Assembly: GCF_017348835.2 (NCBI RefSeq) | Contig: NZ_CP071375.1 | DNA: 64,000 bases | From: Escherichia coli | GTDB taxonomy: Bacteria > Pseudomonadota > Gammaproteobacteria > Enterobacterales > Enterobacteriaceae | Strand: one strand, 5' to 3' | Shown: positions 1 through 64,000 of the stretch, in pieces | Layout of the letters: each line of letters begins with the position of its first letter | Position numbering within the stretch: the stretch's first letter is position 1 | Position numbers and translations under genes: made by a program | Notes under the pieces: generated by a model | Told to the model about the DNA's origin: nothing | Database searches by the model: none | What the model saw: only the letters and a program-made list of their open reading frames with translations

Positions 1-1047
1 CAGATCACCACCATTGGCCGCAGAGTTGATATCATCAATAGTAAAAGGGCCGGGTGGAACAGTAGTCTGATAAACATCGTATCCGTTCTGTTTTACACTC
101 ACTTGTGCGGTGCCACGGGCAATACCATGAATCACCGGAGCGAAACCATGTTGGCTATCGGGCAACATCGCTTCTGTTGAATTTATTTTGAGGCCACGAA
201 AGTTCACACTATCAAAAATATCGCCATCGGTATAACTATCACCTACCGTTAACCGTGAGCGTAAGGGAATAATGTCACGTTCAGCCGACGTATTGATATG
301 CTGCCATTTATTGCTGTCTGATGAATTGCTACTCCCACTGTTATAACTCCACGTTGAGTTATCGCGCAGTCGCCAACTACCAATGTTGATGCCACTCTGT
401 AAATTCAAATATGCATAGTTGGATTTTCCTGCATTATGGTTACTACGATTATTAATAGAATTACCATTAAAACTATAGTTTAGAAGCCCAGCATTTATTC
501 CTTCTTCCCACAGATCAGGAGAAACATAGCCGCGAGCCATTCTGCCAACATAAATTTGCGGAACGGAGAGTGACAAATGTTGCTGACCAACATCAAACTC
601 AGTTGATGCGTCAGCTAAACGATCCTGAAGTGGTGTGCATGCGCTGTTGTCCGGCACATGTTTTTCTGCTGAATGTTCGTTATTGTCTAATAACGCAGAT
701 TTTTTTATGCCAAGACTGACAAGAAGATCTGTACTTAGGCATGGGATGAGATCTGCGTTATTATCATCTGCAATAAAAGTAATATCCCGACTAGTCATAA
801 ATTCGTCGTTCAAATAAATGTCGACCCGATATGTACCAGGTGGTGCCTCGCGTCCCTTAGTAAAGGCGGATAAATCGACAGATTCAGCAAGATCATTGCT
901 TAAAAACCGTGGATTAAAATAATACTCTGCGTCAACGGGAAATACCGCAGTTGCTAAGCTAAGGGCAATGGTAAGCCGTACAAAGCGAGGCAGTAGTAAC
1001 ACCTGATGCATACGATATGCCTTAAATGCGGCACGAAAGGCTGTCAT
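1..1047 (-). CDS. Fimbrial outer-membrane usher, N-terminal ~349 codons; gene continues beyond window start
   Basis: Minus-strand frame from ATG at 1045-1047 is open to position 1 with no stop (absent from ORF track because it runs off the edge). Sits downstream of pilin and chaperone genes in classic chaperone-usher order. Confidence 0.7.
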   Translation of the reverse strand, partial: MTAFRAAFKAYRMHQVLLLPRFVRLTIALSLATAVFPVDAEYYFNPRFLSNDLAESVDLSAFTKGREAPPGTYRVDIYLNDEFMTSRDITFIADDNNADLIPCLSTDLLVSLGIKKSALLDNNEHSAEKHVPDNSACTPLQDRLADASTEFDVGQQHLSLSVPQIYVGRMARGYVSPDLWEEGINAGLLNYSFNGNSINNRSNHNAGKSNYAYLNLQSGINIGSWRLRDNSTWSYNSGSSNSSDSNKWQHINTSAERDIIPLRSRLTVGDSYTDGDIFDSVNFRGLKINSTEAMLPDSQHGFAPVIHGIARGTAQVSVKQNGYDVYQTTVPPGPFTIDDINSAANGGDL

Positions 1048-1088
1048 TATTAATTCCGATTGAGTTTATTATTAATTAGGTCACTGGC

Positions 1089-1808
1089 TTACTGCATGGT
1101 TGCCTTAATACGCGGAGTTAATGCACCGTAATCATTGATCGTCTGAAAACTGATATCCCCGGTTGCAGCATGCGGGATATCCACCGATACTTCACCTTTT
1201 GGCGGCACCATGGTGTTTGGGAGATTGCTATTTCCTGCTTTCATATTTGTTACGGTAATGAAGTAGGGCGTTGGATTAATAAGGGTGAGTTTGCTACCGC
1301 TGCGACGAAACCGAAGCATTGCAGGCGCTTCTTCAGGTGCCATTGCCAGGTTCGTGGGGCGATAAAACATTTTTATGCGGCTAATAATTGCCAGCTGTAA
1401 TGTATTCTCATTCTTCTGGTCTTTTTCCATAGCAGGAATAGCTTTAACATTCACCCAGAACAGGCTTTCACGGTCGCCTGGTAACTGATGATTAGTGGCA
1501 TTGATTATCCGCAGCGTATTCTCTTTTTTACCTTGCATGGAAAAAAGCGGTGGGGTAATGACAAACTGGGTGTCTTTTTGGTCACCTGCATTTTCTATCC
1601 ATGACTGAATGAGATAGACACTGGCAGGATCATTATTCGTGACAGGCAATAAAACCTGTTTCTGGTTTGCCGGATAAATTACCCGCGTCGCACCCAGTGC
1701 GACAGCTGCGTTGGCAACGGTGCTATGGCAAGCAAAGAGCAATAAAAGTAACACTGTCGCCATAAAGGAAATAGAGTAGGGGGTACGCGTAGTTTGCATC
1801 TGATGCAT
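1089..1808 (-). CDS. Periplasmic fimbrial chaperone (FimC/PapD-like)
   Basis: 239-aa ORF with N-terminal signal peptide (hydrophobic run ending in ANA) and chaperone-like sequence; lies between pilin and usher. Confidence 0.8.
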   Translation of the reverse strand: MHQMQTTRTPYSISFMATVLLLLLFACHSTVANAAVALGATRVIYPANQKQVLLPVTNNDPASVYLIQSWIENAGDQKDTQFVITPPLFSMQGKKENTLRIINATNHQLPGDRESLFWVNVKAIPAMEKDQKNENTLQLAIISRIKMFYRPTNLAMAPEEAPAMLRFRRSGSKLTLINPTPYFITVTNMKAGNSNLPNTMVPPKGEVSVDIPHAATGDISFQTINDYGALTPRIKATMQ

Positions 1809-2159
1809 TCTCCATGTGTTAAGAGGATAAGCGGGAAAACCGTTACATCAGACAATCGATAAATGTTGCTAATACATTGGCGAGTCGCCGGGTTTCCAGA
1901 CTTAATGCGTTTGTAATAAATGTTGGTTCTCTTTTAATAGGAAAACCTTGCTACAAAGTAAATATTTTAAATAACAGTAAGTTTAACTACTGTTGTTTAT
2001 TGATAGTTTAGATATTATGTGATTTTTCATAGCGCTCCAAATACAAACCACTCCTCATTAATAATGAGATTCACATTGGTGAATTGCTCGGGTGTGCGTA
2101 GCCATGCCACACACACCCTGTTTCAATTTCAGATGACGTATAGCCACCTTAAGATTGAA

Positions 2160-2723
2160 TTATAGATATTGAACCTTGAAGGTCGCATCTGCGTTTGCAG
2201 TACCAGCTACGGACTGCCCGAGTGCAATATAACGAGCCTGGAACGGCAGTATATTCGTGCCATCAATCAAGTCAGTTTTAGCGCTAAAAGTGGCACCATC
2301 AAGTATTAATACCTCACCCGTACGGTCCAAAATTTGGATACCGACATTTTGGGCAGAGCCTGCCGCTGAACTCTGCAGCGCTAACGTATCGTCATTACTG
2401 GTGACAGTAGTACCCAGGAATGCAACAGCTGCATTACTGGAAACATTGGTATCACAATCATTCAGCTTGATATTGAAGCCAACGGCGGAGCTGAGGTCAC
2501 CCGCTTTAGCCAGGCGAGAAGAACGAACCTGACCCAGCTCAACCGTTTGGTTCATTGATTCTGAATCAATCGCACAAGCGGCATTTACCACTTCACCTTT
2601 AAAATGAATAACACCGCCATTAACAGTGGTCGTTACTGATTCATCACCCTCGCCTGCGCTTACCGCAGCAGACGACATCGCCAACACAGAAACGACAATC
2701 ATACCAACATGTTTGAGTTTCAT
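2160..2723 (-). CDS. Major fimbrial subunit (FimA-like pilin)
   Basis: ORF with signal peptide [23 protein letters not shown], Cys pair and C-terminal FKVQYL pilin motif; GGAG ribosome-binding site upstream of ATG at 2723. Confidence 0.8.
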
Positions 2724-3156
2724 AATTCTCCAAAATTTATATTTAAGTAGCTGAATAAAGAGAGTTAACAATTAAGTCATTCTGTTATTGCTTATAAAAC
2801 AAGAATCATTCTTGATTGGTTGTTGCCCTGAGAATATAGTTTCCAGGATTATTACATTTCACGAAGAACGAGAATATCTTTAAATCACAAGGACACCTAA
2901 TCACAACAAGTTTATTGCTGCACTTGTTGAAGAGAGTATTTGCAAAAATATTTTATGTCGCTAAATAACATAACGATTTCATTATGCATGTTATTTATAA
3001 ACCGTGACTAAACAGAATATTATTGCGAACAAGGGAAGTGTCAGGAAAGGTCAAGGGCTACTAATGGTTTATATGGCTATAAATCATTAGCTATAGTTAA
3101 TGTTTGCCTGGTGTAACTAACACCGAATTGCTCTAAACAGATAAGTGCAGGGTTTA

Positions 3157-3411
3157 TTAAAGCTGACCGACAGACTTTCTTAACCTGGTAATATCTCTCT
3201 TAGGTGACTCTCCAAACATCTGCAAATATTCCCGGCGGAAATGGGATAAGCTTTCGTAACCGACAGCATAGGCTGCTGTGGTGACATCGTAATGTTCATT
3301 CAGCATCGTTCGCCTGACTTCATTGAGACGTAGCCATTTCTGATACCGGAGTGGACTCATTCCCGCAAGCTGCCTGAAGTGTTGATGGAAAGAGGGCGTG
3401 CTCATTTGCAC
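3157..3411 (-). pseudogene. yneL: AraC-family regulator fragment (C-terminal HTH only), yneL-like
   Basis: 84-aa ORF carries only the second AraC helix-turn-helix; the overlapping 3320..3577 ORF in another frame does not look like HTH1, so the gene appears truncated or frameshifted. Confidence 0.45.
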
Positions 3412-4117
3412 GCGGTTTGCCAGCTTGAGTCTTCAACGCTGGGAAGATGCGGCAAACGGCAAATCGGCATACCAGCCAGCCTATATCCGTCATGCACAGG
3501 CCAATTATGAAAGAGGAGAGGCTTAAGTTCTGGAACCCTGAACGAATAACGAGCACCGGAAAATCACTTCGTATCACTCAGATGCTATTTAACATAATAT
3601 ACATTATGCGCACCAATATAAACCAAGGGAGAATCTAGTCGTTGGCGGTCATGATTGTCCTGCTCATTAACAACGACCAAACCCCATATCTTACTCTTAC
3701 TTAATACCGTATTCCCGGCTTAACCGACCGTGCAACCTCAACACATTGGTTTCAACTGCCGTCACCACGTTCTCTGGAAAATCTGTCGGTAATGAAGTCT
3801 TCACGTTATCCAGTGCTGCCGGAATCATTCTGGCAAAGTCACTCAGGATTTCATGCATCTGCACTTCCGGGAATCTCAGCACCTTTGCTGTCGCCAAAAA
3901 ATGTCGCGGATAAATTTTATCGATTGCCGTTTTTTTGCCTTTGGATGCGTTAAGCCCCATTGCCAGTTTGAGATCGCTGATGTGTATTCCCGCGCCACCC
4001 AATACCGGAAATGCTGAAATGATGTCGTAAAATGGCGTGAGTCGATAACTGCCGCCAGCCTGAATAAATACGGAGAAGTTTTTTGCATGGCCATCCGTTG
4101 CGCCAATCAGTTCGCTG

Positions 4118-4547
4118 CATACCGGTCCGACCCCGTACTGCTCACGCAGCTTATCCAGCAGTGGCATTATTTTTTCCAGAGGCGGTCGAACTCCGCCTTC
4201 GCAAAATAAGCGGAAGCCTGGCGAAGGATATCGTTACTGCGGCGCAGTTCACGATTTTCACGTTCCAGCTCTTTCAGACGCTGACGTTCAGCGGTGGTGA
4301 GTCCACCATCACCACTCCCGGTATCCCGCTCATGCTGGCGAACCCAGACACGCAGAGTCTCCGGCGTACAGCCAATCTTTGGGGCAATGGAACAAATTGC
4401 CGCCCACTGTGAGTCATATTCATCCTGACTTTCCAGAACCATACGAATCGCCCGCTGACGGACTTCGGGGGAAAAACGAGTATTTTTAGTCATCCTGTTT
4501 ACCTCTTTCTCAGGGAGTTTAGTCTCCAGGATTTCCGGGGCGGTTCA
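4118..4547 (-). mobile_element. Truncated IS3-family element (IS629/IS1203-like): terminal repeat, complete orfA, first ~20 codons of orfB
   Basis: Bases 4118..4547 match the full copy at 56514..57823 (same end sequence, ending ggggcggttca); identity stops at 4118 inside orfB. Confidence 0.8.
4167..4493 (-). CDS. IS629-like transposase OrfA
   Basis: 108-aa ORF ([19 protein letters not shown]...), identical to the orfA at 57443..57769. Confidence 0.85.
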
Positions 4548-4841
4548 CAACGCTGTCTCGCCCTATTTCTGACAATAAATCAAACGGTTGTCTGGATTTG
4601 GCATGATAACGTTTAACGATCCGGTCACGTACAATCGGGCTATCGGGTAACAAGTTATCGAAGAAGTTAAATACGGCATCAGAGGTGATATTCCCCCTCT
4701 GCAATGGCAGCGAAAGTGACAACGGTCTGGCATAACGGCTGGCTAACCACTCCGGTGCATACTTAAAGGTGTGCGCGCCGTTGGCTAACTTCGTTAACTC
4801 GCCTACCCGCTGGTTGTTCATCCAAGTGACTAGTTTGGGCA

Positions 4842-5108
4842 TTACCACTCCAGATCTTGCTGTTCTGTTGATTCTGGCGAGGCATTTTTCGTGTCGCATA
4901 GCGTCATTGAGAGTTCAAGCGACTGTAAAATCTTAAAAAATGTCGTGAGCGAGGTATTGTCAGGGTTGTTTTCGAAATTGGAAATCGTCGCCTGCTTAAT
5001 GCCGATTTTTTTCGCCAGCTCGCTCTGCGTCCAGCCATTTTGCTGGCGAACCAGTTTCATTGCATTCGCTAATTGCGTTGGGCTATAGATCTTCTGAAAG
5101 CTCATCAT
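4842..5108 (-). CDS. hipB: HipB antitoxin / transcriptional repressor
   Basis: ORF matches HipB (MMSFQKIYSPTQLANAMKLVRQQNGWTQSELAKKIG...); stop overlaps the hipA start by 1 nt as in the known operon. Confidence 0.9.
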   Translation of the reverse strand: MMSFQKIYSPTQLANAMKLVRQQNGWTQSELAKKIGIKQATISNFENNPDNTSLTTFFKILQSLELSMTLCDTKNASPESTEQQDLEW

Positions 5109-5318: not shown

Positions 5319-8300
5319 TTACCAGCTATATTTCACTCCCAGCATGCCCTGAGTATCGCTATAGCCTTTATCACCTAGTTGCACACCGACATTCCCCCAC
5401 AGGCTAAGGTTGTTATTTACTTTCGCCTCAACCCCGGTACGTACTTCACCGAGATTACGCGCACCATCACGGCTTACGGTTTGACCATTCATCTTCACGG
5501 CGTAGACTTCGCTATTGTTGATCCAGTTCGCTTCAATGTAAGGCTGGAACTCACGCTGTTTACCATCGTCACGCTGGTGATGGCTATTCAGGTAGGTTTT
5601 CACCCCAAGTCGCGTTTGCACGTTTCCGTCGCCTTCCGTTTCAATGCGCGTTCCGTCTTTCCGGGTATGGTCAGAATCTTTCACACCCATCCAGGTGATT
5701 TGTACCTGTGGCTGGACGTACCAGGTATTCAGCGTCCCTTCGCTGCCACTAAATGTTCCCGCTTCAAAGGTATACCCACCCTCAACAGAGGCCGTCACAC
5801 CGCGAGAATCATAGTCGTCAGCAGAACGGTTATCGGAACTGACACTGTTATCAAACCAGTTATACAGCACCCAACTGTCAACATAAGCGCCGGTCTTATT
5901 CGCATCGTTCTGATACCAGGTCGCGTACAGCCCAGCGCTGTAACCGCTGATGCGCCCATCCGATTTATAACCCACACGATTACTCTGAGTATTACTGTGC
6001 TGATTGGCGTAGCCTGCCATCACGCCAAGATGCCAGCGATCCTGCGCGTTGCTACTCCACTGCGCCAAATCGCCGCCTAGCTGCAATACATAGCGGTTAG
6101 CCTGAGCATTTAGCTGGCCGTCACCGGTCCTGAAACGTTCGTGTCCCCCGACATGACGCATCCACATACTGCTTGCCGAACCCTGAGAAAGCCGTGAATC
6201 TGTATACTGCGGCTCACCCAGACGGTCGTGTAAGCGATGGCTAAACAGCGAGTTGGCTGCGGCAATGTTGCTGATATAGCTTCCGGCCTCCGGGCGATAA
6301 ACTGATGGGCCTTCCGGATCCACAACAGGGGGATTATTGATGGGATCGGGTGTATCCGCTGGCGTTACGCCGTCCCATTTACTGGTCAGATACCAGTTTT
6401 TCTCGTCATTCCCCTTCCCTTTAGCCAGCGTGTAGACGTAAGCCCCAGCTTCGACAGTTCCGGTGGTCAGCGCGAAGTTACCTGCAGAATTACCGCCAAC
6501 CTCAATGAGTTCAATACCGTTGACCGTTTGCGCACCGACGCCGCCAATGTTATCAACCCGAACGCGAGTGTTCCCTTGGGTATCGCCTTTCACGTTCATC
6601 TTATCGGTGGGTGAATTATCGCCGCCCAGCGTCGCGTTGAACGTTATCAGGCCATTGTTTCCGGTATAGTTGCCGTTAACGGTCAGTACATTCCCCGGTT
6701 TTCCTCCTTCACTGTTCATTTGAACCGTGCCGCCATTCTTCAGGTTGCCGCCGATTGTGGTTTTAGCGACACGCAGTGTCCCCCCAGACATAACGTTCAC
6801 ATCACCTGCAGTGGTGACATTTCCCGACATCACACCGCTGTTATGGATATTAATGTGTTGACTTACCGTATTAATGGCAGAGTCGGAACCGAAAGCAATT
6901 TCCCCCCCCCCACGATATCCGTCGTACCCTGATACGCCGAGGAATCGTTGTTAAGAGTCAGGATCCCGGTACCCAGTTTTGTCAAATCACCGCTACCGCT
7001 GATACTGTGCGTCATCGCCCAGCTACGCTCAGTGGAGATGGTGAGCAGGCCATTATTGATAACGGAAGCATCACCCAGGTTTTTCTGCTCGTTGACGCTG
7101 AGCGCGCTGCCTGTATCAATGTTGAATTGCCCCACAAAGCGGCTATTATCGCCATCCAGCTCTACATCTGTCCTGGCGGTTGCGCTCACGATACCCTTCC
7201 CGCTTATGCTATTACGCAGTTCGCCAGTCACGTTTTTTAGCGTTAACAGACCGTCATTGGCAATATTTCCTCTGCCTAACCCCTGCGTATTATCGAGGCT
7301 GACTTCCGCATTTGGGCTAACGCTGGTTAACGCATTGTAGCGTGCATTAAGCCCCTCAATAGCCAGCGTTCCCCCTGTAACATTCAGGTTTCCGCCACCT
7401 GTCAGTTCACCCTGACTGATCCCACCTTTGGACACCGTGGGAACCGTCCTGAACGCCCACCAATGAATATTCTTTGTTATTAATCAGTCCATTATTGGAA
7501 ATATTGACTTTGCCATTACCGAAATATCCATTATAGAGTCTGCGTACCGTGATGACAGAGTCTTGATCCTGCACATTCAGGGTTCCGACACCGGTGGCAT
7601 TGCCACCGATAATCGTATTTTCAGCCGTAATCAGTCCACCCTCGCGAATAGTCGCCTCCCCAGTTCCTTGATTACCAATTTGAAATTCAATTGAGGAATC
7701 GTTATTTTTCATTAGCCACTCGCCACCCTTTTCAACGACAACCTGGCCATTACTGCCCGCCTGATAGCCTAAAATGGCGACGATTGAACTCGTGACGTAA
7801 CCCTTATCCGTAATATTTAATGAGCCTGTACCGTAACTCCCTATTTCGAATAATTCGGTCGTCAAAACCGAGTCCTCTCCCTCAACATTAACCGTCCCGA
7901 CGCCTGCAGCTTGAGTACCTAATCTTAAATAGCCTCCATCGACGTGACCCTTCTGTTTAATATTCAGCGTCCCCGTTCCGGATTGACCCACATTTAAAGG
8001 CCTTGCATTATTTCCGCTATCATACAATCGCCAGGTGCCACCCAAAACATTAACGGTACCCTCCGAATCCTCATTACCGCCAATGACGCTGGTAGTAATA
8101 GTGGTTAAGGAGGCATTACCGCCAGCCAAAATATTAAGCACTCCAGTGCCATACCAGCCAACCAGGTAGGCATCATAAGCAACATCAGTATCAATATTGG
8201 TAATCTGACCATTATCAACTTCCAGACTCGCACCAGACGCTGAACCGCTTAGTGCCAGCAAAACACCCAGCGTCAATCTACTGAATTTCGTTGTCAGTCC

Positions 8301-8414
8301 AGAGGATTTACGCAAATTAACCGTCGATGTTTTACCTGCCCTGCGAGTTAATTCCGAGCAGGCCTGAAATACCTGTAGAGTGCAATTCCATATCACGCGA
8401 TAGATTCTATTCAT
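5319..8414 (-). pseudogene. yneO: AIDA/Ag43-type autotransporter adhesin, frameshifted into three ORFs (yneO-like)
   Basis: ORF 7407..8414 has an extended autotransporter signal peptide (MNRIYRVIWN...), ORF 6863..7435 a Gly/Thr-rich passenger, ORF 5319..6833 a beta-barrel ending in a W terminal residue; all three are in different frames. Confidence 0.8.
6902..6911. repeat. Homopolymeric tract, 10 x C on + strand (G10 on coding strand) at the frame break inside the autotransporter
   Basis: tcccccccccca read directly; both flanking reading frames are open across the tract. Confidence 0.9.
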
Positions 8415-29034: not shown

Positions 29035-29037
29035 TTG

Positions 29038-52020: not shown

Positions 52021-53050
<1,030 letters not shown>

Positions 53051-53923: not shown

Positions 53924-53927
53924 TGAA

Positions 53928-54143: not shown

Positions 54144-54363
54144 ATCCTCACCCCGATGTACACGGATGGTGCAATATGTTTGAAAAGATCGGAGTCTACG
54201 GGGTAGTTTTGACAGCACACGTTGTTCTCAACGGCGCTAAAGAAACATACACATTAAAAATGTGAGTAATTATTTTTTAAAGAAAGTCATATATAAAATA
54301 ATAATACGAGAAATGTTTTCATATTTAGTGTACTGTATACGGCCATTTATACAGGAAAAGCCT

Positions 54364-54534
54364 ATGTCAGAACGTAAAGACTCAAAATCACGCCGTAATT
54401 ATCTCGTTAAATGTTCCTGCCCAAACTGCACCCAAGAGTCAGAACACAGTTTTTCAAGAGTACAAAAAGGTGCCCTTTTGATCTGCCCTCATTGCAACAA
54501 AGTATTCCAGACAAATCTTAAAGCTGTAGCCTGA
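54364..54534 (+). CDS. Small zinc-ribbon protein (56 aa, two CxxC pairs)
   Basis: MSERKDSKSRRNYLVKCSCPNCTQESEHSFSRVQKGALLICPHCNKVFQTNLKAVA; ribosome-binding site AGGAAAAG. Confidence 0.55.
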   Translation: MSERKDSKSRRNYLVKCSCPNCTQESEHSFSRVQKGALLICPHCNKVFQTNLKAVA

Positions 54535-54593
54535 TTGATTTTATTAGTAACAAGTATTTTTTATATTTTAATAATATATTTAAAGCAGATAAT

Positions 54594-54617
54594 AAAAAAC
54601 CCGCCTGAGCGGGTTTG
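54594..54617. terminator. Bidirectional intrinsic terminator
   Basis: A-run + CCCGC-ctga-GCGGG + ttt. Confidence 0.7.
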
Positions 54618-54897
54618 AGATTGTGGTGCTTTTTGTGGGAGTCATCCACTTACGCACTTTGTTTTGCCATGCCAGCAGTTAGCTTCTGCTGTAAAACTAT
54701 TCATGCAGCAAACCTGCACTTCACCACAATGGTTAGCATACTTTTCCTGATTAAGATTTTGCCAAATATGCTGGCCATTGTTTCATGTATTGGACCTCCT
54801 TAATTTTCATTAAAGAGATCCAATATTCACTACTCTGTCCGTATCTCTACTCAGGCATCAGCCTTCTTCGTTATCGTATACAGACGAGCGATGAATT

Positions 54898-55113
54898 TTA
54901 ATCAGTAATGATGACATTTGCTGCTGCAGGACCTTTAGCACCACTCTCTATAGAGAAGGTAACCTTTTGACCTTCAAATAAGGTTCGATAATTATCATTC
55001 TGAATCGCAGAAAAATGCACAAACACATCTTTACTACCATCAACAGGAGAAATAAAGCCGAAACCTTTATCAGCGTTAAACCATTTTACTAAACCAGTCA
55101 TTTTATTTGACAT
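54898..55113 (-). CDS. cspB: Cold-shock protein
   Basis: 71-aa cold-shock-domain ORF. Confidence 0.9.
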
Positions 55114-55411
55114 TCTACATTCCTTAACTTGAGCCTTTCGGCATAAATGGTTTGCATAACAGAAACGACTTCGTACTTAATTGGAGAGACTCAAAGAAGG
55201 AATAAGTGAATAACACCTGAAATGAGAACTGCTTTAGTAAACTACTTCGTATATCGTCTGTTCTTCAAACCGACGCAGTCATTAACTCATAGTTGAACAT
55301 ATGAAGCAATGTTTATTTTAGACATCCAGCCACCTTCAACCCTATCAAAAAAGTAGTTTTCTCCAGGAACGTGTGTATGGTGCACCAGGTTATCAGTATT
55401 AAGGAGTTTTT

Positions 55412-55625
55412 CTGTCCCCTAAAATGACAGGAATTGTCAAAAACTTTGACTACAAAAGCAGCAAAGGTCTTATATTCCCATCCGATGGCGTATCGATGCC
55501 CAGCTTCACGTTTCAGCTCTCAATCTTCGAGATGCAGAAGAAATTACCACAGGATTACGCGTGGAATTTTGCCGGATAAATGGTTCGCGTGGACCTTCAA
55601 CTGCCAATGTTTATCCCGGGATGAG
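55412..55625 (+). pseudogene. cspF: cspF/cspH-like cold-shock gene with a frameshift
   Basis: N-terminal MTGIVKNFD...PSDG is in one frame; the rest ([42 protein letters not shown]) is in another frame that runs on to 55950. Confidence 0.45.
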
Positions 55626-55656
55626 ATTCAATATCTCTATTGCCCCATTTAAAGCA

Positions 55657-55690
55657 CAAAAACCCGCTTATAAGCGGGTTTTCTACTTTT
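55657..55690 (+). terminator. Intrinsic terminator
   Basis: aaaaa-CCCGC-ttataa-GCGGG-tttt. Confidence 0.7.
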
Positions 55691-55788
55691 TTCTAAACGT
55701 CGGATACACAAAGCCCATCGTTGAGAAAATCTTATCCATGTTTTTTGAAAAATGCAAACATCATGTCGCCATCTTCAGCAAAAATCAT

Positions 55789-56513
55789 TTATCTCGTCAC
55801 CTTCCTCAATTGCGCTTCCGCGTATGCTTCTTCCTGCCAGCACTTTGTTACCAGTTTACCAATGACGTCAGCATACCCCTTATACCACTGATAATCGGTC
55901 AGGTCTGGTACCAGCTTCTGGACATGACGTCGTGCCAGCGTGGTCGGTAAACGACTAAACCGGTTTCCATTACAACGCCCACAAATCTTATATACCGGTA
56001 CGCCATGAAACCGGGTTCTTTTTTCATCCAGAACAATCCCTTTACCCTTACACCCTCTGCACGCTGTGCTGACTTCGCCCTTACCATGGCAATGCTGACA
56101 TAGTTCCTTTACCCATTCTTCCTTGATTACAGATTCCCCGCGTCTGTAGTGTTTCACCACTTCGCGCAATACATTATAAAATCCCGTACCTGAACAATGC
56201 TCACAGCGAGCCTTACTTGCCGCAGACCTAGAGTAATCAGCAAAGGCAAAATTCACGAGGTAAGGAATAATCTGTAACCGGATTTCTTCACTCAATTTGT
56301 TCAATGTCGGGTTATCCAGTGCCATCGCGTAATTTAGCAGGCCTTCAATCGCAAACTGAGGGTCCTGAACACCAACTTTTGCCAGAAATAAGGCCAACCC
56401 AAGTGGTGCTTTCGACTGCACCATCCCCTGCGCTGCCATTACATCCGTAATTGTTAAACAACCGGTGCCTGTCGCTGGAGCGTCATCGCTCAATTTTGGA
56501 GATTTTGGGGAGT
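55789..56513 (-). CDS. quuQ: Late-gene antiterminator Q-like protein with four CxxCxGxG zinc motifs; 5' end removed by IS629
   Basis: 234-aa ORF starts at TTG 20 bp from the IS end; frame is open right up to the IS boundary at 56514. Sits upstream of the cold-shock morons and lysis genes. Confidence 0.6.
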
Positions 56514-56555
56514 TGAACCGCCCCGGGTTTCCTGGAGAGTGTTTTATCTGTGAAC

Positions 56556-57443
56556 TCAGGCTGCCAGATCATTATTTCCGATGGAAGCATAATAAGCTTT
56601 TTCTGCTTCTGCCGGAGGAATATGGCCCAGCCTTTCCAGCAATCGTCGATTGTTATACCAGTCCACCCACGTTAGTGTGGCCAGTTCCACTTCTGTCCGG
56701 TTTTTCCAGCTCTTACGGTGTATTACCTCCGCTTTGTAAAGACCATTGATGCTCTCAGCCATCGCGTTGTCATACGAGTCGCCAGTACTCCCTGTTGATG
56801 CCAGTAATCCGGCTTCCTTAAGCCGCTGCGTGTAGGCCAGCGATACATACTGAGAACCTTTATCACTGTGATGGATTGTGCCGGACGGCCGACGGGCCCA
56901 CAACGCCTGCTCCAGTGCATCCAGCACGAATGTTGTTTCCATGGATGATGAGACCTGCCATCCCACGATGTATCCGGCGAACACATCAATGATGAACGCC
57001 ACATAAACGAAGCCCTGCCATGTGCTTACCCAGGTAAAATCAGCCACCCACAACTGGTCTGGACGTTCTGCCACGAACTGACGGTTTACGCGGTCGCATG
57101 CGGCAACGGCTTTCCGGCTGACGGTAGTGCGGACCTTTTTACCCCGGAGAACACCGGCAAGTCCCATAACTGCCATGAGACGTGCCACAGTGCATCTGGC
57201 CACTCTGATACCTTCCCGTAACAACTGACGCCAGACTTTACGCACACCGTATACCTGGTGATTTTCATCGTATACGCGCTGTATCTCTTTCTTCAGCCAG
57301 TCATCGTGCTGCGCACGGGCACTGCGTTTATCCGGATGATGTCGCTGTTGCTGACAATGGTAATACGTTGACGGGGCAATATGCAGTTCGCTGCATACCG
57401 GTCCGACCCCGTACTGCTCACGCAGCTTATCCAGCAGTGGCAT
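56556..57443 (-). CDS. IS629-like transposase OrfB (DDE); expected to be made as an OrfAB fusion by -1 frameshift
   Basis: 295-aa ORF; A-rich slippery stretch (GGAAAAAATAATG) at the orfA/orfB overlap. Confidence 0.9.
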   Translation of the reverse strand: MPLLDKLREQYGVGPVCSELHIAPSTYYHCQQQRHHPDKRSARAQHDDWLKKEIQRVYDENHQVYGVRKVWRQLLREGIRVARCTVARLMAVMGLAGVLRGKKVRTTVSRKAVAACDRVNRQFVAERPDQLWVADFTWVSTWQGFVYVAFIIDVFAGYIVGWQVSSSMETTFVLDALEQALWARRPSGTIHHSDKGSQYVSLAYTQRLKEAGLLASTGSTGDSYDNAMAESINGLYKAEVIHRKSWKNRTEVELATLTWVDWYNNRRLLERLGHIPPAEAEKAYYASIGNNDLAA

Positions 57444-57769
57444 TATTTTTTCCAGAGGCGGTCGAACTCCGCCTTCGCAAAATAAGCGGAAGCCTGGCGA
57501 AGGATATCGTTACTGCGGCGCAGTTCACGATTTTCACGTTCCAGCTCTTTCAGACGCTGACGTTCAGCGGTGGTGAGTCCACCATCACCACTCCCGGTAT
57601 CCCGCTCATGCTGGCGAACCCAGACACGCAGAGTCTCCGGCGTACAGCCAATCTTTGGGGCAATGGAACAAATTGCCGCCCACTGTGAGTCATATTCATC
57701 CTGACTTTCCAGAACCATACGAATCGCCCGCTGACGGACTTCGGGGGAAAAACGAGTATTTTTAGTCAT
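57443..57769 (-). CDS. IS629-like transposase OrfA
   Basis: 108-aa ORF identical to 4167..4493. Confidence 0.9.
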
Positions 57770-57874
57770 CCTGTTTACCTCTTTCTCAGGGAGTTTAGTC
57801 TCCAGGATTTCCGGGGCGGTTCATTAAAGATTTTTTTGTGCATGCCGATAGTGCTTTTTTAAAAGGAGAAATCT

Positions 57875-58207
57875 ATGTCTGTCACAATTCAGGGAAATAC
57901 CTCAACCGTTATTTCAAACAACTCCGCCCCGGAAGGAACATCAGAAATAGCCAAAATCACAAGACAAATTCAGGTGCTGACTGAAAAGCTTGGGAAAATC
58001 TCATCGGAAGAGGGGATGACGACACAGCAGAAAAAAGAAATGGCTGCATTGGTACAGAAGCAAATTGAAAGCCTCAGGGCTCAACTGGAGCAGTTGTTAA
58101 GGCAGCAGGCAGAGAAAAAGAATGAAGACGCGACAGTTCAGCCTGATAAAAAAGAAGAGAAAAAAGACGATACAAATACCGCTGGCACCATTGATATTTA
58201 CGTCTAA
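57875..58207 (+). CDS. flxA: Prophage protein FlxA
   Basis: 110-aa ORF MSVTIQGNTSTVISNNSAPEGTSEIAKITRQIQVLTEKLG... with ribosome-binding site. Confidence 0.7.
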   Translation: MSVTIQGNTSTVISNNSAPEGTSEIAKITRQIQVLTEKLGKISSEEGMTTQQKKEMAALVQKQIESLRAQLEQLLRQQAEKKNEDATVQPDKKEEKKDDTNTAGTIDIYV

Positions 58208-58221
58208 GTGACAGCCGTATT

Positions 58222-58245
58222 GTGGCCCTCATCGGGCCACTTTTC
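58222..58245 (+). terminator. Intrinsic terminator after flxA
   Basis: GTGGCCC-tcatc-GGGCCAC-ttttc. Confidence 0.75.
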
Positions 58246-58643
58246 GCCATCAGCCTTTTCTTTAAAGACATATTATCTTTGTATCATTTCTGATAGTTAA
58301 CATTACAAGATATAAGTAATGGACGCACTCCCAATTAGTCTATTTAAATCGCCACGAGTTTAACTGACAACCCATGATCAATTATGAATTGCAACTATTT
58401 CTGTAGTCACTTTTGTGGGGACAGTCCACAAAACTGCCAACTTCCGCTTCTTGCTCTTAGCGGACATTAGCATAGGCTATTTACCATAACGCCTCATTAC
58501 GCGCACCGCCCAGACTGACTCAGCGCGTTTCTGGCATATCCCCGGTAAAACAAGTAACAAACCACCCGAAAATGAACACCAGAAACGCGACTTAAGAATC
58601 TACCCTATGAATGGATATGCACTCAACCGAATCGATCTTGGTT

Positions 58644-59985
58644 TCAATCTTTTTTATCGGGATCAGGCTTCTTTTTAGGTAACTTCGGGGGCTTAACTTG
58701 CTGATGACTTTGCGTTCGGCGCGTAAGCCAGGGATGGTCAGCTTTAGGTTTAACATAGTATTTTGAGCGTAAATCAATACGGGCATTATCCACTCGTTCA
58801 TGGACACTCTTTTCATCATCCAGTGGTATAGGCTCCGGGCCATCAACATACTTTTCCCAGCCCAGCGCTTTCCCGTCATACAGAACGTTAATTTCACCGT
58901 CAAAGTTCTCGCATACAGTAACAACCGAATGCCTAAGTCGATATCCCCGGCCCTCACTGCGTACCTGAAACGCACTGCTTTTGTACTGGAAAGTGAGATT
59001 TTTAGACAGAACGCGCTTCGCCTGTAGGCTGAAGATATAACCCAGTTCCTCTTCAGAATGGTGCACATCAAGATGAGCATTATCAGTAGTACGAGGCGAC
59101 GTAGCGAACCGGTTGTTATAGGCTTCAATAAAGGTCGGCAACCATGCATTTGCTGTTTCAATATCACTGATATTCTGAAGCCGCATTTCTTTGACCAGCC
59201 TGTCCTGTAGTGTCTGATTGGCGCGCTCTACCCGCCCTTTTGCCTGCGGGCTGTTGGCATGGATTGGCTCGATGCCCAGTGTCTTTATCGCACGAGTGAA
59301 CTGGGTCAGCTCACCTTCCCGCTCTGGGTTATTTACCCTGAATATACTGTGTCTATCAGAGTAGAGAGCGAGCGGTACGCCATGATCATTAAGGTAACCC
59401 CGGAGGGTTTCCATGTAAGCCCGGGTTGTTTCAGCAGGCACAAAACGCAACGCCATCAACGCACTGGTGGCATCATCAATGAAAACGATCAGTGTACATC
59501 TGGGGCCTCGATTTTCAAACCAGTCATGAGGTGAGCCATCAATCTGGATCAGTTCACCGTAAGATGGTCGTCGCATGCGGCGTTGATATATACGGGCAAT
59601 TTTACGACGGCGTTCACGCCATACCCCCCTCTTCTATCATCCACTTTCTGAGAGTTTCAACGGATAAAGATAAACCGTGTATCTCGCGCAATTTTTCGCA
59701 CGCAAACGTAGGTCCAAAATCAGCGTAACGGCCTTTGAGGAGTGAAATTACTGTTGCTCTGAATTCAGTAGAAAAGGAATTATTAGGACGCTTTCCACGT
59801 CGGTGGGAAACCAGACCAGAAGGCCCTTCATTTCTATACCGTTGCACCAGACGTTTAACCTGCCGAATAGAAATGCCAATGCGTGCCGCAGCTTGTTCCT
59901 GAGTAATATGTCGATTAATTGACTCCTGAATAATCTGAAGTCGGTGGAGTTCCTTATGACTCATCGTAACAGTTTCTTTGGTCAT
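58644..59985 (-). pseudogene. HTH + DDE (integrase-core) transposase split into two frames (IS481/ISNCY-like)
   Basis: N-terminal HTH ORF 59614..59985 and DDE ORF 58644..59576 are in different frames; a C7 run sits at the junction (59625-59631). Confidence 0.6.
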
Positions 59986-60319
59986 GAAAAATCCCCCAGA
60001 GAATTGTCTGGGGACATTTTAGAATGGTTCAAAGGGGACATTACAGCTTGGTGTTAACAATAGCCTGCTTCTCCTTGCCTTTCGGCACGTAAGAGGCTAA
60101 CCTACATGTGTCTGGCATGAAATTGGCCTCAGATTAATGTTAAGCGTCTTGCAGGACGCGTAATGTTAACTGGGGCTTTTCTCTACCTGCCGTTGGTGTT
60201 CGTGCCCGAGGCAGATAGCCTCAAGCACCCGCAGTCATTCTACTTAACTAAGATTTCCCCGCAAACCGTTTTTGTCCAGCACAGTAAATATCCAACTAAA
60301 CCAATGGAGTTCGCTGTAT

Positions 60320-60499
60320 TTACCGCCAGTATTCAATGCACATGACCGCCATGAACACCCCTAAAAAAAGGGCATTTATATATCCAAATATTAATATCAA
60401 AACATCAACTTTTTCCATATACCTTGCTGTGAAGATGATGGGCATACATGATGCGAACAACCAGAACGCAACAAACAAAAACTGCAATGCGTTTTTCAT
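60320..60499 (-). CDS. Hypothetical small membrane protein (59 aa, two predicted TM helices)
   Basis: ATG at 60499 four nt after a perfect AGGAGG; MKNALQFLFVAFWLFASCMPIIFTARYMEKVDVLILIFGYINALFLGVFMAVMCIEYWR. Confidence 0.5.
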   Translation of the reverse strand: MKNALQFLFVAFWLFASCMPIIFTARYMEKVDVLILIFGYINALFLGVFMAVMCIEYWR

Positions 60500-61651
60500 T
60501 ATTCCTCCTACAATCAATGTGCAATTACATTTAAACACACCTCAATTTGGCCGGACATATAAATATCTAAACCAGAAAAAATCACTTACATAGCGTTACA
60601 AACTCTTTAGTCTAAAGGTTCATCGTAAAACATTCCCCATACTTATCAGTCCGTTCCGCGCCAGGTAGCTCATTGCCTTATCTGGCAACCTGTAATCAGG
60701 TTTCCGCTTTTTCAGTTGGCTGGTCGTTTAACCGACATAGTTAACCCATTAATCTAGTTGCCGGATGTTGGTGGATTTTCGCGTTTTAGTTGTTCATAAA
60801 AGTGCACAGCTTTAACCAATTCTTCTGATGTAACCGGGACTGGTGAGGCAGTGAATAAGGCCTGAATTTGATAGTTCGGCCTGTCGTTACAATCCTCTTT
60901 TTTCGGTACATATTTCCAGTCACCAGACCACTACTTCCCCTGAAAGTCCGTAACGCCTTTTTTCACGTAGCGATATCGCCATGTCACTGGTTTTGCTTGC
61001 CCCGCCGTTTCATGCCCTTCCTGATAATTAATCTCGCTCATTCATCGCCCCACTCATCACAATATGCTTCGACCGGAGTTTTTCCCGCTTCATAGTCATC
61101 ACGCTAGGATTCGACATCAGCAGCACTTCCACCGCGTAACTCACCATAGTCCATTAATAGTTCATCCCGCTCTTCAAAACTGATGTTATATTTAGCTGAA
61201 CAAAAATCAGCCACTTTGTTCTTCCTCATCGTCTTTTATTTCGTGGTATGAGTAATTGCAGTAGTTAAAGAAAATTTCTTATGCTCCGTCATGAATTTCA
61301 TCAGGTGTTGCGTCATCGTCCACTTCGAATACATCCTCAAAATCTCCACCAGCTATTCCCGTTTCAATAATAATTTTGAACTTTCGCATTTCACTACCGC
61401 CCTTTCGGGCGGCCTCCTGATGTTCTGAGGGTGCAGAAATCCATCCGGTTAAGGATTAAGTTTTATTTACAGAACTGAATTTAATTATTCAGATATACGT
61501 ATCTGTAACCTTACGAATCTACTCACTGGATGCCTCTTTCATAAAAATAATCCAGTGGGTTTTATCGTTTTTTCCCTGTTCGTTGACAGATAACAGGCTT
61601 TCTATCTGTCAGTGCCAGAATCTGGCTTACCGGTATTTGCGTTTCATTCCA

Positions 61652-62008
61652 TTAAAAAATCAGAACGCCGTGCGGCCTCAACACCCGAAAAGCTTCTTTA
61701 AATCTCTGTCGCAAATCATCACGCCAGGCATCTTTATTCAGCCGTCCATATTTCTTTCCCATCCAGGCGTTATCACCAACACGCTCAAGATGCGGAGGGT
61801 CTAATACAACCATCGAAAAAGATGCGTCTGCAAATGATAATGCACGAAAATCTGCGATAATGTCAGGGCTGATAATCAAGCGTCTCCCATTGCGTAATGT
61901 GTATCCTTCTTTTCTGATATCGCTAAATATCGCCCGTTCGTCAGACTTATCGAACCAGAACATGCGGCTGCCACAGCACATATCAAGAATGGTTGCCGGT
62001 GCACTCAC
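61652..62008 (-). pseudogene. DNA methyltransferase fragment (motif I, DPPH motif IV; C-terminus missing)
   Basis: 118-aa ORF from GTG: DMCCGSRMF, VVLDPPHL, RVLRPHGVLIF, then stops abruptly. Confidence 0.5.
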
Positions 62009-62535
62009 TGCGCCACGTCCTGAAAATTACCCTGATAGAAAGCCAGTATGCGCTGCATAACTTCGCTCTTCCGGCACTCGCGACAGATTATGTTTAGGCG
62101 ACTGTCGTAGCGACGTATTTCTCCGTCAGGTGATGACCAGATAAGGTCCGGATCAACCACAGCAGGTTTCTTCACCTTTGCCCTCGAGAGTTTTTTGCGG
62201 GCGTTTTGCCAGTCCTTACGCGCCTGTTCAGAGGGGAATAACCCGTATCTGATATCCCAAAAAATGAAACCGCACCGGAAGCTGAACCATCTGTAGAGCG
62301 TGAGGGGCCGTTCTATTTCCTCTTCGCAGATAAGGACGGAGAAAAATACGGTCGCGCAAACAAACTTTCTGGTCTGGATAAGGCACTGGCTGCTGGCGCC
62401 ACTGAAATCACAAAAGAAGAATATTTTGCCCGAAAAAATGGCACATACACGGGCTTACCGCAAAATGTAGATACCGCTGAAGATTCAGAACAACCAGAGC
62501 CGATAAAAGTTACCGCTGACGAAGTAAACAAAATT

Positions 62536-63615
62536 ATGCAGGCAGCCAATATCAGCCAGCCTGACGCCGATAAGTTGCTTGCTGCATCACGTGGTGAATT
62601 TGTTGAAGGGATTAGTGACCCGAATGATCCGAAATGGGTTAAGGGGATCCAGACCCGCGATTCTGTGAACCAGAACCAGCATGAATCGGAACGGAACTAC
62701 CAAAAAGCGGAACAAAACAGCCCAAATGCGTTACAAAACGAGCCAGAAACGAAACAGCCTGAATCAGTGGCGCAACAGGAAGTGGAAAAAGTCTGCACCG
62801 CCTGCGGTCAGACCGGCGGCGGCAACTGCCCTGATTGTGGCGCGGTGATGGGCGACGCAACATACCAAGAAACATTCGATGAAGAGTATCAGGTTGAAGT
62901 TCAGGAAGATGATCCGGAGGAAATGGAAGGCGCTGAACATCCACACAAGGAGAACGCTGGCGGCAATCAGCATCACGATAGCGATAATGAAACTGGCGAG
63001 ACGGCAGATCACTCAATTAAGGTGAACGGTCATCACGAAATCACATCCACCAGCAGGACGTGTGACCATCTAATGATCGACCTTGAAACCATGGGAAAAA
63101 ATCCTGATGCCCCGATCATCTCAATAGGTGCAATATTTTTCGATCCGCAAACCGGAGATATGGGACCGGAATTTAGTAAGACTATCGATCTGGAAACTGC
63201 TGGCGGAGTCATTGATCGGGACACCATTAAATGGTGGCTTAAGCAATCACGCGAAGCGCAATCGGCCATTATGACCGATGAAATCCCGTTAGATGATGCA
63301 CTGTTACAATTGCGGGAATTTATCGACGAAAACTCCGGTGAATTTTTTGTTCAGGTTTGGGGAAATGGAGCCAACTTCGACAACACGATTTTGCGCCGTT
63401 CATACGAACGGCAGGGGATCCCCTGCCCGTGGCGTTACTACAACGATCGCGATGTACGCACAATCGTTGAGCTGGGGAAAGCCATAGACTTCGATGCCAG
63501 AACGGCTATTCCATTCGAAGGTGAGCGCCATAATGCACTTGATGACGCCCGTTACCAGGCAAAATACGTTTCAGTTATCTGGCAAAAACTGATCCCGAGT
63601 CAGGCTGATTCTTAA
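62536..63615 (+). CDS. Prophage protein with zinc ribbon and C-terminal DEDD (DnaQ-like) 3'-5' exonuclease domain
   Basis: 359-aa [19 protein letters not shown] zinc ribbon; exonuclease motifs [25 protein letters not shown]. The frame is open upstream to 62242 without a start codon. Confidence 0.7.
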
Positions 63616-63687
63616 TGTTCAACTGTCGCCGGTTGTGACTGGTATTCTGCAACCGGCGCTCGTCTGATGTAAGAGATAAAGAAATCG

Positions 63688-63939
63688 ATGAGCGAAGTAA
63701 TCATGATTGTCTCTCCCGGCAAATGGGTATCCGAAGAGCAGTTAATTGCGCTGAAAGGAATAAAAAAAGGTACGTTAAAAAAGGCCCGGGAAAAATCGTT
63801 TATGGAAGGAAGGGAATATAAGCATGTCGCTCATGACGGTATGCCATGGGATAACAGTCCATGCTTTTACAACCTGGAAGAAATTGATCGCTGGATTGAG
63901 CGCCAGGCATCAGCAAGACCAAGACGTCATCTTACTTGA
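63688..63939 (+). CDS. Excisionase-like small DNA-binding protein
   Basis: 83-aa basic ORF immediately upstream of the integrase start. Confidence 0.5.
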   Translation: MSEVIMIVSPGKWVSEEQLIALKGIKKGTLKKAREKSFMEGREYKHVAHDGMPWDNSPCFYNLEEIDRWIERQASARPRRHLT

Positions 63940-63974
63940 CTAAAAGCCACACTAACTAATGAGAGAAGTTGAAA

Positions 63975-64000
63975 TGAAATATCCGACAGGCGTGGAAAAC
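63975..64000 (+). CDS. Start of a tyrosine integrase gene (IntR-like N-terminus MKYPTGVEN...), truncated by window end
   Basis: ATG at 63975 followed by MKYPTGVEN, resembling the N-terminus of Rac-type integrases; only 9 codons are in the window. Confidence 0.4.

Follow-up and report, generated by a model that had tools for sequence, protein, structure and literature searches.

Pseudogene density at the replication terminus of an Escherichia coli clone with active IS629 is probably a local composite

Does a stretch of chromosome crowded with broken genes report the decay of a whole lineage, or the history of one locus? The question is raised by a 64,000-nucleotide stretch of Escherichia coli DNA (the window, the whole stretch analysed), in which a sequence-only reading had named twelve interrupted genes and, pointing also to IS629, proposed a lineage undergoing gene decay. 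All twelve interruptions are present. The list was sound as far as it went, but further lesions are present: ydfJ is truncated, ydfR survives as a remnant, ynfR has a stop, and there is a terminase/tail-fibre chimera. We consider it probable that the density of pseudogenes arises locally, as a composite of four layers, and does not signal reductive evolution of the genome as a whole.

The window is the dif/hipBA–lsr–mar–Qin replication-terminus region of a clone related to PE164, a LEE-positive O108:H9 atypical EPEC from a pig (PMC12233904). Its K-12 counterpart is 1.589-1.653 Mb (NC_000913.3), and the backbone order is fimbrial operon, yneL, dif, hipBA, autotransporter, lsr, mar, ydfJ and a Qin-like prophage. 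PE164 is 99.97-100% identical to the window, the sequences not being the same, and a second sister strain, F2_81, is 99.9% identical; these two are independent assemblies, from China and Australia. Because the window and PE164 each have private SNPs (3 versus 2-3), they represent independent genomes, and fewer than 10 backbone SNPs separate sister strains across 64 kb. ECNB21-M121, an unrelated ordinary strain, served as the sole sampled comparator, while junctions and exact 61-mers were searched in 5426 complete genomes. The backbone features are as follows.

3157..3426, minus strand: yneL-like HTH regulator remnant, an ancient pseudogene (partial according to PGAP in PE164, F2_81 and ECNB21-M121)
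3587..3614, minus strand: dif, chromosome dimer resolution site and terminus marker (exact match to the 28-bp dif sequence, 0 expected by chance)
3697..4109, minus strand: hipA 3' fragment, nt 911-1323, 100% identical to the intact F2_81 hipA
4110..4547, minus strand: IS629 left-end fragment, 438 bp, internally fused to hipA (recognised by identity to the complete IS629 copy)
4548..4842, minus strand: hipA 5' fragment, nt 1-295 (4842-4548), from comparison with F2_81 hipA
4845..5108, minus strand: hipB, an intact antitoxin gene without its toxin (tblastn 88/88 aa, 96.6% identity, no stops)
5319..8414, minus strand: ECSE_1600/YneO-type autotransporter pseudogene, with an internal deletion and a poly-C tract
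21225..22643, minus strand: dgcF, 472-aa form, nonsense mutation Q330* (CAA>TAA at 21654-21656)
26579..27693, plus strand: yneK, one T lost from a T8 run (T7 at 27425-27431)
43305..44588, minus strand: ydfJ, 5' end cut off by prophage integration (PGAP 'missing N-terminus' in PE164, F2_81 and ECNB21-M121)

Part of this damage is shared with distant strains. The two-frame layout of the yneL remnant matches the K-12 yneL pseudogene, and the boundary of the ydfJ truncation is identical in K-12. The autotransporter has lost 2.3 kb internally near 7430, which alters the reading frame; besides the window, this junction occurs in PE164 only among the 5426 genomes. Its poly-C tract (6902-6911) has a length of 10 in the window, 11 in PE164 and 8 in K-12 and ECNB21-M121. 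In both of the latter the gene (yneO in K-12) is also a pseudogene through different lesions, an IS1 insertion in the case of ECNB21-M121, and it has been broken independently in several lineages. The same backbone stretch carries 6 flagged genes in ECNB21-M121 and about 9 decayed genes in K-12. Remnants also seen in K-12 and/or the unrelated strain (yneL, the prophage-cut ydfJ and the autotransporter) would form the first layer. The suggestion that several of the interrupted genes are intact in K-12 is borne out for hipA, yneK, rrrQ, cspF and ydfT, but not for yneL and the autotransporter, which are pseudogenes there; K-12 dgcF is open, yet itself a 498-bp deletion variant.

Other lesions are private to the clone. 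The exact 61-mer carrying dgcF Q330* was found in PE164 and F2_81 only, among 5426 genomes, while the yneK lesion is common to the window and PE164, the gene being intact in F2_81, ECNB21-M121 and K-12. Clone-private backbone lesions in the window (hipA, dgcF, yneK and the autotransporter deletion) exceed the number predicted from the genome-wide rate. We assume relaxed selection near the terminus, which, like the deletion mechanism discussed below, we infer.

At hipA, 615 bp are gone and the 438-bp IS629 end fragment stands in their place. Over positions 4108-4547 the sequence agrees 100% with 57384-57823, and the fragment gives a match to the ALIL pseudoknot. The hipA/IS629 junction at 4108/4109 was found in 0 of 5426 complete genomes and is thus unique to the window. 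PE164 has a full IS629 at the corresponding point, with a CAAC target duplication on both sides. F2_81, in which hipA is intact, has lost lsrK-lsrB plus the autotransporter.

That sisters have lost different neighbouring modules could indicate that the clone-private losses (the hipA toxin, the dgcF cyclase, the autotransporter and other adhesins, and lsr in F2_81) are pathoadaptive, having been selected in the pig attaching-effacing niche as opposed to accumulating by neutral decay. Surface adhesins have been struck repeatedly (the autotransporter, a YadA-like protein and FdeC), and a c-di-GMP cyclase is gone. However, the comparison covers two sister strains, and the numbers are too small for telling selection from chance. 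The autotransporter is moreover broken in K-12 and the unrelated strain, suggesting that E. coli can generally do without it. We therefore regard selection of this kind as unlikely.

The remaining features belong to the prophage or lie within it.

44589..64000, no strand assigned: Qin-like cryptic lambdoid prophage, collinear with K-12 Qin from ynfT to ydfT
47188..48741, minus strand: chimeric ORF, terminase large-subunit N-terminal part plus tail-fibre C-terminus (blastn against the intact ECNB21-M121 prophage)
52515..53050, minus strand: rrrQ endolysin, +TA frameshift at 52719-52720 (61-mer search)
53588..53923, minus strand: ydfR remnant, homology limited to nt 1-206
55412..55614, plus strand: cspF, one base pair lost at about 55488 (PE164 and F2_81 carry the flag too)
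55789..56513, minus strand: Q antiterminator (ydfT) without its first 28 nt and without the upstream early genes, cut by IS629
56514..57823, minus strand: complete IS629, 1310 bp, orfA 108 aa and orfB 295 aa, without target duplication
58644..59985, minus strand: remnants of ISEsa1 (IS1202-like) transposase, one ORF with an HTH and one with an integrase core (PGAP, Pfam)
60620..61389, minus strand: two broken early ORFs (PGAP in PE164 and F2_81)
61519..61963, minus strand: SAM-dependent methyltransferase pseudogene (PGAP frameshift and internal stop; Pfam methyltransferase fragment)
62005..62247, minus strand: DUF977 C-terminal fragment (Pfam profile positions 82-134 of 134)
62275..63615, plus strand: prophage 3'-5' exonuclease, N-terminal half gone (PGAP 'missing N-terminus')

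About half of the lesions in the window fall inside this cryptic prophage, which extends past the window end at xis/int and has an early region and integrase unlike those of K-12. PGAP flags 10 of its ~34 CDS in PE164. Nucleotides 1-1048 of the chimeric ORF match the terminase gene of the ECNB21-M121 prophage by blastn, and nucleotides 1045-1554 match the 3' end of its tail-fibre gene. On this alignment the chimera is the scar of a ~20 kb deletion with which the morphogenesis module has gone; automatic annotation labels the ORF intact. The early ORFs comprise a hypothetical gene with a frameshift and a stop (60620-61041) and a DUF7167 gene interrupted by a stop (61207-61389). The exonuclease domain itself is complete (Pfam Rv2179c-like, positions 2-177 of 177). 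The second layer would be the ordinary erosion of such a prophage, with loss of the morphogenesis genes and much of the early region. The exact 61-mer containing the rrrQ +TA change is, like that of dgcF, restricted to PE164 and F2_81 among the 5426 genomes. Together, dgcF Q330*, yneK -1, rrrQ +2 (+TA) and cspF -1 would constitute the third layer, of clone-private point mutations.

Lesions of this kind might be sequencing or assembly artefacts, through homopolymer errors or collapsed IS repeats: the yneK change is a T8 to T7 contraction, the poly-C tract differs by one between the window and PE164, and the internal hipA/IS629 junction is known from the window alone. In contrast, dgcF Q330*, rrrQ +TA and cspF -1 lie outside homopolymers and recur in PE164 and F2_81, from different continents. 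The window and PE164, as independent genomes, both have yneK T7, hipA::IS629 and the autotransporter deletion, and the IS insertions of PE164 have proper target duplications. Each break is common to PE164 and/or F2_81, so that an artefactual origin is scarcely credible, and the breaks had rightly been read as real.

The IS629 copies of the sequence-only reading amount to one complete copy plus one fragment. The former shares 99.5% identity with the element deposited as IS629 from phage BP-4795, and the frameshift pseudoknot is present. This copy, next to Q, is without target duplication and therefore points to an adjacent deletion. Indeed, F2_81 retains an intact Q plus ydfU, rem, hokD, relBE and ydfV, with 3139 bp absent from the window. 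The deletion alleles at both IS629 loci differ between the window and PE164. In a census of IS629 only, 32 chromosomal matches were found in PE164 and 26 in F2_81; carrier genomes have a median count of 4 and reach 53 at most. Of the IS629 sites tested, 5/5 are private to PE164 or to F2_81. IS629 is thus expanded in the clone and active. Elsewhere in PE164, IS629 has broken genes for a YadA-like adhesin and paoC-prfH, and internal stops interrupt fdeC and aphA.

The fourth layer would be recent insertion of IS629 into hipA and beside Q, followed by deletions, one of 1.5 kb that spans both hipA and the IS, and one of 3.1 kb at Q by which the genes from ydfU to ydfV were lost. These were probably IS-adjacent or microhomology-mediated; the IS-excision enhancer (IEE) is reported to promote IS629 excision and deletion (PMC9943667). 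IS629 has expanded to ~30 copies and is currently mobile, as it is in attaching-effacing E. coli of the O157, O103 and O26 types, leading to strain-to-strain gene inactivation and small deletions. What was observed directly comprises every lesion, the genomes in which it recurs, the number of IS copies and the fraction of pseudogenes in the samples.

The claim of a high pseudogene density holds. In PE164, 19/78 CDS (24%) are flagged in the equivalent region and 20/347 (5.8%, 95% CI 3.6-8.8%) elsewhere (Fisher p = 4.7e-6), the latter 'genome-wide' rate being that of seven 50-kb samples (350 kb, 7% of one genome) and consisting of PGAP flags with gene fragments counted too. The rate in ECNB21-M121 was 7/196 (3.6%), from which 5.8% does not differ significantly (p = 0.31); PE164 may have a modest excess, of about 1.6-fold, over this comparator. 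The overall pseudogene load thus appears to be within the ordinary E. coli range.

These rates bear on whether the whole lineage is in IS-driven reductive evolution like Shigella/EIEC, with the window a representative sample. An IS629 count at the upper end of that seen in E. coli, the strain-private sites, several IS-associated deletions separating sisters within 64 kb that differ by fewer than 10 backbone SNPs, and the genes broken elsewhere in PE164 are all in line with such a process. However, the sampled fraction is indistinguishable from that of an ordinary strain and four times below the window, the PE164 genome of 5.03 Mb is not reduced, and the locus is pseudogene-rich in unrelated strains too. 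Some 32 IS629 copies, with IS629 alone counted here, are also set against a total of ~70-290 IS in EIEC/Shigella (PMC7373316). We consider lineage-wide decay very unlikely, an ordinary genome-wide rate having apparently been found, and the step from window to whole lineage mostly fails.

On the reading of a local composite, the window combines known biology: a decay-prone terminus, a dead prophage and an active IS629. With the K-12 terminus it shares the backbone gene order, a prophage in ydfJ and the yneL and autotransporter pseudogenes; with Qin it shares the order ynfT-ydfK-pinQ-tfaQ...cspI-rzpQ-rrrQ-ydfR-essQ-cspB-cspF-ydfT and the loss of morphogenesis genes. K-12 differs in having a dicB/dicF early region and a broken intQ, whereas the early arm of the window consists of the methyltransferase, DUF977, exonuclease, xis and int, plus IS629. 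The fimbrial usher is truncated in K-12 (ydeT) and full-length in PE164 and F2_81, the window having its 3' end only.

As in Shigella/EIEC, chromosomal genes are inactivated by IS insertion or by deletions associated with an IS, and close strains differ in their pseudogenes. The proposed likeness goes no further, with published loads there of about 70-290 IS copies and far more gene loss (PMC7373316), compared with tens of copies of one IS and a sampled pseudogene fraction of about 6% in the clone; total IS per E. coli genome has a median of 32 (IQR 22-57; PMC7373316). The IS629 load follows the O157-type pattern, far below Shigella, and 'O157-type rather than commensal' was a fair guess, the nearest strain being an attaching-effacing pathogen, a LEE-positive O108:H9 atypical EPEC. 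In EHEC O157:H7, and in attaching-effacing E. coli other than O157, IS629 drives small structural polymorphism, and O157 has 19-21 chromosomal copies (PMC3271280), a number similar to or below the ~32 matches here. The element is the same (99.5%, 1310 bp, orfA/orfB, frameshift pseudoknot), insertions favour prophages and accessory genes at strain-specific sites, and IS-adjacent deletions lack target duplications in both. In contrast to O157, the host here is an stx-negative pig O108:H9 atypical EPEC/ExPEC hybrid clone, whose sisters share 0/5 tested IS629 sites where O157 strains share many.

The window is most closely matched by the chromosome of PE164 (NZ_CP114128.1; 99.97-100% identity), a strain isolated in Nanjing from a pig showing diarrhoea and blood, with F2_81, from an Australian pig rectal swab, as the runner-up (~99.9%). 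PE164 is an O108:H9 atypical EPEC/ExPEC hybrid that carries the LEE type III secretion system, chuA and one 41.7-kb plasmid (PMC12233904). No exact counterpart of the window was found in 5426 complete genomes. In a three-way comparison that left out the recombining prophage tail, private differences amounted to 3 SNPs for the window, 2-3 for PE164 and 6 for F2_81, a pattern that makes the window strain and PE164 sisters and places F2_81 slightly further away; backbone divergence between PE164 and F2_81 is ~1-2 SNPs per 10 kb. Relative to PE164, 1488 bp spanning hipA and IS629 are missing from the window, the IS629 copy beside the antiterminator gene Q is reversed in orientation with its junction displaced by 3-4 bp, and a 1.28-kb flxA-ydfW segment lost from PE164 is retained. 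One alternative was that the window represents an earlier version of the PE164 assembly in which IS copies were misassembled. This was ruled out by the flxA-ydfW segment, which is 100% identical to that of F2_81, together with the private SNPs. The SNPs between the window and F2_81 bunch at 46800-50000 (tail-assembly, terminase and nohA genes), with ~25 in 3 kb where 29 kb of backbone shows 5 differences, which suggests recombination between prophages.

Two further polymorphisms were observed in the backbone. MarR (29936-30370, + strand) has a K140N substitution that only the window and PE164 show (K in F2_81, K-12 and the unrelated comparator strain ECNB21-M121), as well as G103S and Y137H, which the window shares with F2_81, unlike K-12. 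A rhodanese-like gene and ftrA (33377-34838) lie between ydeE and mgtS; neither is present in K-12 or ECNB21-M121, and this presence-absence is an ordinary insertion/deletion polymorphism.

The K-12 counterpart of the window is found at ~1.589-1.653 Mb. The gene order runs from a fimbrial operon through yneL, hipBA, the yneO autotransporter, the lsr operon, tam, yneE, uxaB, dgcF, the mar locus and ydfJ to a Qin-like prophage. An exact match to the 28-bp dif sequence shows that the window spans the replication terminus. All of the interruptions named in the sequence-only reading were found, as follows.

Features of the window and lesions of its genes
3587-3614, - strand: dif, exact 28-bp match, between the yneL remnant and the hipA 3' end
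yneL-like gene: partial HTH remnant
hipA: nt 1-295 and nt 911-1323 kept, with a 438-bp IS629 end fragment in between
4845-5108, - strand: hipB, intact beside the destroyed hipA
Autotransporter gene: 2.3-kb internal deletion shifting the reading frame
dgcF: Q330* (CAA>TAA)
yneK: T8 run shortened by one T
47188-48741, - strand: terminase/tail-fibre fusion ORF of 1554 nt, comprising the first 1048 nt of the terminase gene and the tail-fibre 3' end
rrrQ (endolysin): TA dinucleotide gained
cspF: one base lost
Q (ydfT): first 28 nt cut off by a complete IS629
56514-57823: complete IS629, 1310 bp, both ends read, imperfect terminal inverted repeats (TGAACCGCCCCGG...)
Prophage early region: ISEsa1 transposase remnants, broken methyltransferase gene, DUF977 fragment, two more broken ORFs
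Prophage exonuclease: N-terminal half gone, catalytic domain complete

Other lesions had escaped that reading, namely the truncation of ydfJ, a stop within ynfR, what remains of ydfR, and the terminase/tail-fibre fusion. The fusion ORF passes for an intact gene ('terminase large subunit family protein') in the annotations of PE164 and F2_81; it is the scar of a ~20 kb deletion that took the head and tail genes. With hipA destroyed and hipB intact, the antitoxin is orphaned. The dgcF gene of K-12 (315 aa; comparison stretch L003, 26682-27966) has itself undergone a 498-bp deletion relative to the 472-aa sensor-domain diguanylate cyclase of other strains (as in stretch L014, 26034-27816). A sok antitoxin RNA match (Rfam, 99.8 bits) was also seen, and a tblastn search of the window with hokD returned only a weak C-terminal Hok remnant adjoining it; together these (60059-60230, - strand, and 60295-60327, + strand) suggest that the early region of the prophage contains a hok/sok module in decay.

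The breaks could in principle be sequencing errors, a possibility that the sequence-only reading had itself raised. They recur in independent genomes, and are therefore real. The dgcF, rrrQ and cspF lesions lie outside homopolymers and are present in both PE164 and F2_81; exact 61-mers spanning the first two occur only in these two strains among the 5426 genomes. PE164, a genome independent of the window, shares with it the yneK T7 tract (its distribution being based on five genomes), the IS629 insertions in hipA and at Q, and the autotransporter deletion. The autotransporter poly-C tract (6902-6911) counts 10 C in the window, 11 in PE164, and 8 in both K-12 and ECNB21-M121; either this homopolymer is hypermutable or its length was misread. 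Without reads, the sole points that cannot be verified are this length (10 vs 11) and the internal junction of hipA with IS629 specific to the window.

The distribution of the lesions across these strains separates them by age. Some are widespread: yneL is also a pseudogene in K-12 and ECNB21-M121, and ydfJ is cut by the prophage in every one of these strains. For the autotransporter gene, K-12 has a pseudogene (yneO) and ECNB21-M121 an IS1 insertion, which shows that the gene has been lost repeatedly and independently. Others are found at the level of the clone and are common to F2_81, comprising dgcF Q330*, the rrrQ, cspF and ydfR lesions and the decayed early region. A younger set is confined to the window and PE164: hipA::IS629, yneK T7, Q::IS629 accompanied by removal of ydfU-rem-hokD-relBE-ydfV, and the deletion in the autotransporter gene, the age of which is uncertain because F2_81 has lost that region. 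Each strain also has private events. These are a 1.5-kb hipA/IS629 deletion in the window, the flxA-ydfW deletion in PE164, and ynfC::IS629 plus a 10.7-kb lsrK-lsrB-autotransporter deletion in F2_81. This last deletion (stretch L006, 33601-34012, corresponding to window 5538-16208) takes most of the autotransporter gene, lsrK, lsrR, lsrA, lsrC, lsrD and most of lsrB, and no IS was found at its junction.

Elements of the IS629 type are ~1.31 kb long, with overlapping orfA (~108 aa) and orfB (~296 aa), a -1 frameshift at a pseudoknot and target duplications of 3-4 bp. The complete element in the window encodes an orfA of 108 aa and an orfB of 295 aa, contains an ALIL frameshift pseudoknot at 57372-57488 (Rfam, 120 bits), and is 99.5% identical over all 1310 bp to the 'transposase OrfA/OrfB of IS629' of phage BP-4795 (AJ556162). 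Size, ORFs, identity and target duplications thus identify it as IS629 (IS3 family). Target duplications were found in PE164 at hipA (CAAC), the YadA-like gene (ATT) and two prophage sites (GAC and CCG), and in F2_81 at ynfC (TTT); the CAAC bordering the PE164 hipA insertion is the mark of true transposition. Four of the six PE164 copies examined have 3-4 bp duplications, and the other two (Q and paoC/prfH) lie beside deletions and have none. No target duplication was found at the window Q copy either, consistent with an adjacent deletion. The window and PE164 carry different IS629-linked deletion alleles at both loci (window junctions 4108/4109 at hipA, and 56513/56514 and 57823/57824 at Q). 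The 4108/4109 junction, which falls inside both hipA and IS629 with a 2 bp overlap, is present in none of the 5426 complete genomes.

Given so many interruptions alongside IS629 copies, the sequence-only reading had proposed a lineage undergoing gene decay. The PE164 stretch matching the window does carry 19 pseudogene flags among 78 CDS (24%), compared with 20 of 347 (5.8%, 95% CI 3.6-8.8%) in seven 50-kb samples around the chromosome, an estimate drawn from 7% of one genome in which flags count gene fragments. The local excess is real (p = 4.7e-6). The sampled rate itself appears ordinary: four samples of ECNB21-M121, annotated with the same pipeline, gave 7 of 196 (3.6%), which does not differ significantly from PE164 (p = 0.31), and lineage-wide decay is thus not supported. 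The same backbone stretch holds 6 flags in ECNB21-M121 and ~9 decayed genes in K-12, including truncated ydeT, ydfJ, nohA and stfQ, which makes the locus a general E. coli hot spot for pseudogenes. About half of the window lesions lie inside the cryptic prophage, and the region brings together the replication terminus, a prophage that is dead and two events caused by IS629. A single window can therefore mislead, with 24% pseudogenes in a genome whose sampled rate is ~6%. All of the features are of kinds already known, namely erosion of the terminus region and of cryptic prophages, and IS629 microevolution of attaching-effacing E. coli.

Broken genes were also observed elsewhere in PE164, where IS629 splits a YadA-like adhesin gene, internal stops interrupt fdeC and aphA, ynfF is frameshifted, and paoC is joined to prfH through an IS629-associated deletion. 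These genes lie in four PE164 comparison stretches (L007, 21423-27589; L012, 7873-12126 and 31851-35098; L013, 6225-6938; L020, 7851-8701).

The same reading was right in seeing an O157-type, IS629-active pathogen lineage. Chromosomal IS629 matches number 32 in PE164 and 26 in F2_81, against a median of 4 and a maximum of 53 among carriers; the chromosomes of O157:H7 strains hold 19-21 copies, and K-12 has none (PMC3271280). The clone has the properties of IS629-rich attaching-effacing E. coli: ~20 or more copies, sites that differ from strain to strain, and IS-adjacent deletions. All five IS629 sites tested, a tiny sample with a biased choice, are private to one strain (hipA, Q, YadA-like and paoC in PE164; ynfC in F2_81). 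That PE164 and F2_81 share none of the five hints at a very recent burst, although we consider it improbable that this pig O108:H9 atypical EPEC/ExPEC clone stands at the start of one. If the lack of sharing held genome-wide, IS turnover per SNP would equal or exceed that reported for Shigella sonnei, and the clone would then offer a natural model, at an early stage, of how IS elements degrade the genome of an emerging hybrid pathogen. In this emerging hybrid-pathogen clone of pigs, IS629 is very dynamic and could serve for strain typing, and its activity may change adhesin, toxin-antitoxin and c-di-GMP gene content among isolates.

The prophage resembles Qin of K-12 in its integration in ydfJ and in the order of its late and lysis genes. 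It differs in the early region, where the dicA/dicC/dicF/dicB, ydfE and intQ arrangement of Qin is replaced by another early arm and integrase; tblastn found no match in the window for dicA, dicB, dicC or ydfA-D. A likeness to Shigella or EIEC, also proposed from the sequence, is unsupported by either pseudogene fraction or IS load. Those genomes carry ~70-290 IS copies in total, against a chromosomal median of 32 (IQR 22-57) in E. coli (PMC7373316), whereas PE164 is on a far lower scale, with its ~32 IS629-type chromosomal matches and, among other IS families, one IS1 copy in the 350 kb sampled. IS629 is described in EHEC as inactivating genes and leaving adjacent deletions, the pattern seen in the window clone. 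In EHEC such events are aided by the IS-excision enhancer, with the ends joined through microhomology (PMC9943667), and the 2 bp overlap at the window hipA/IS629 junction would fit end joining of this kind.
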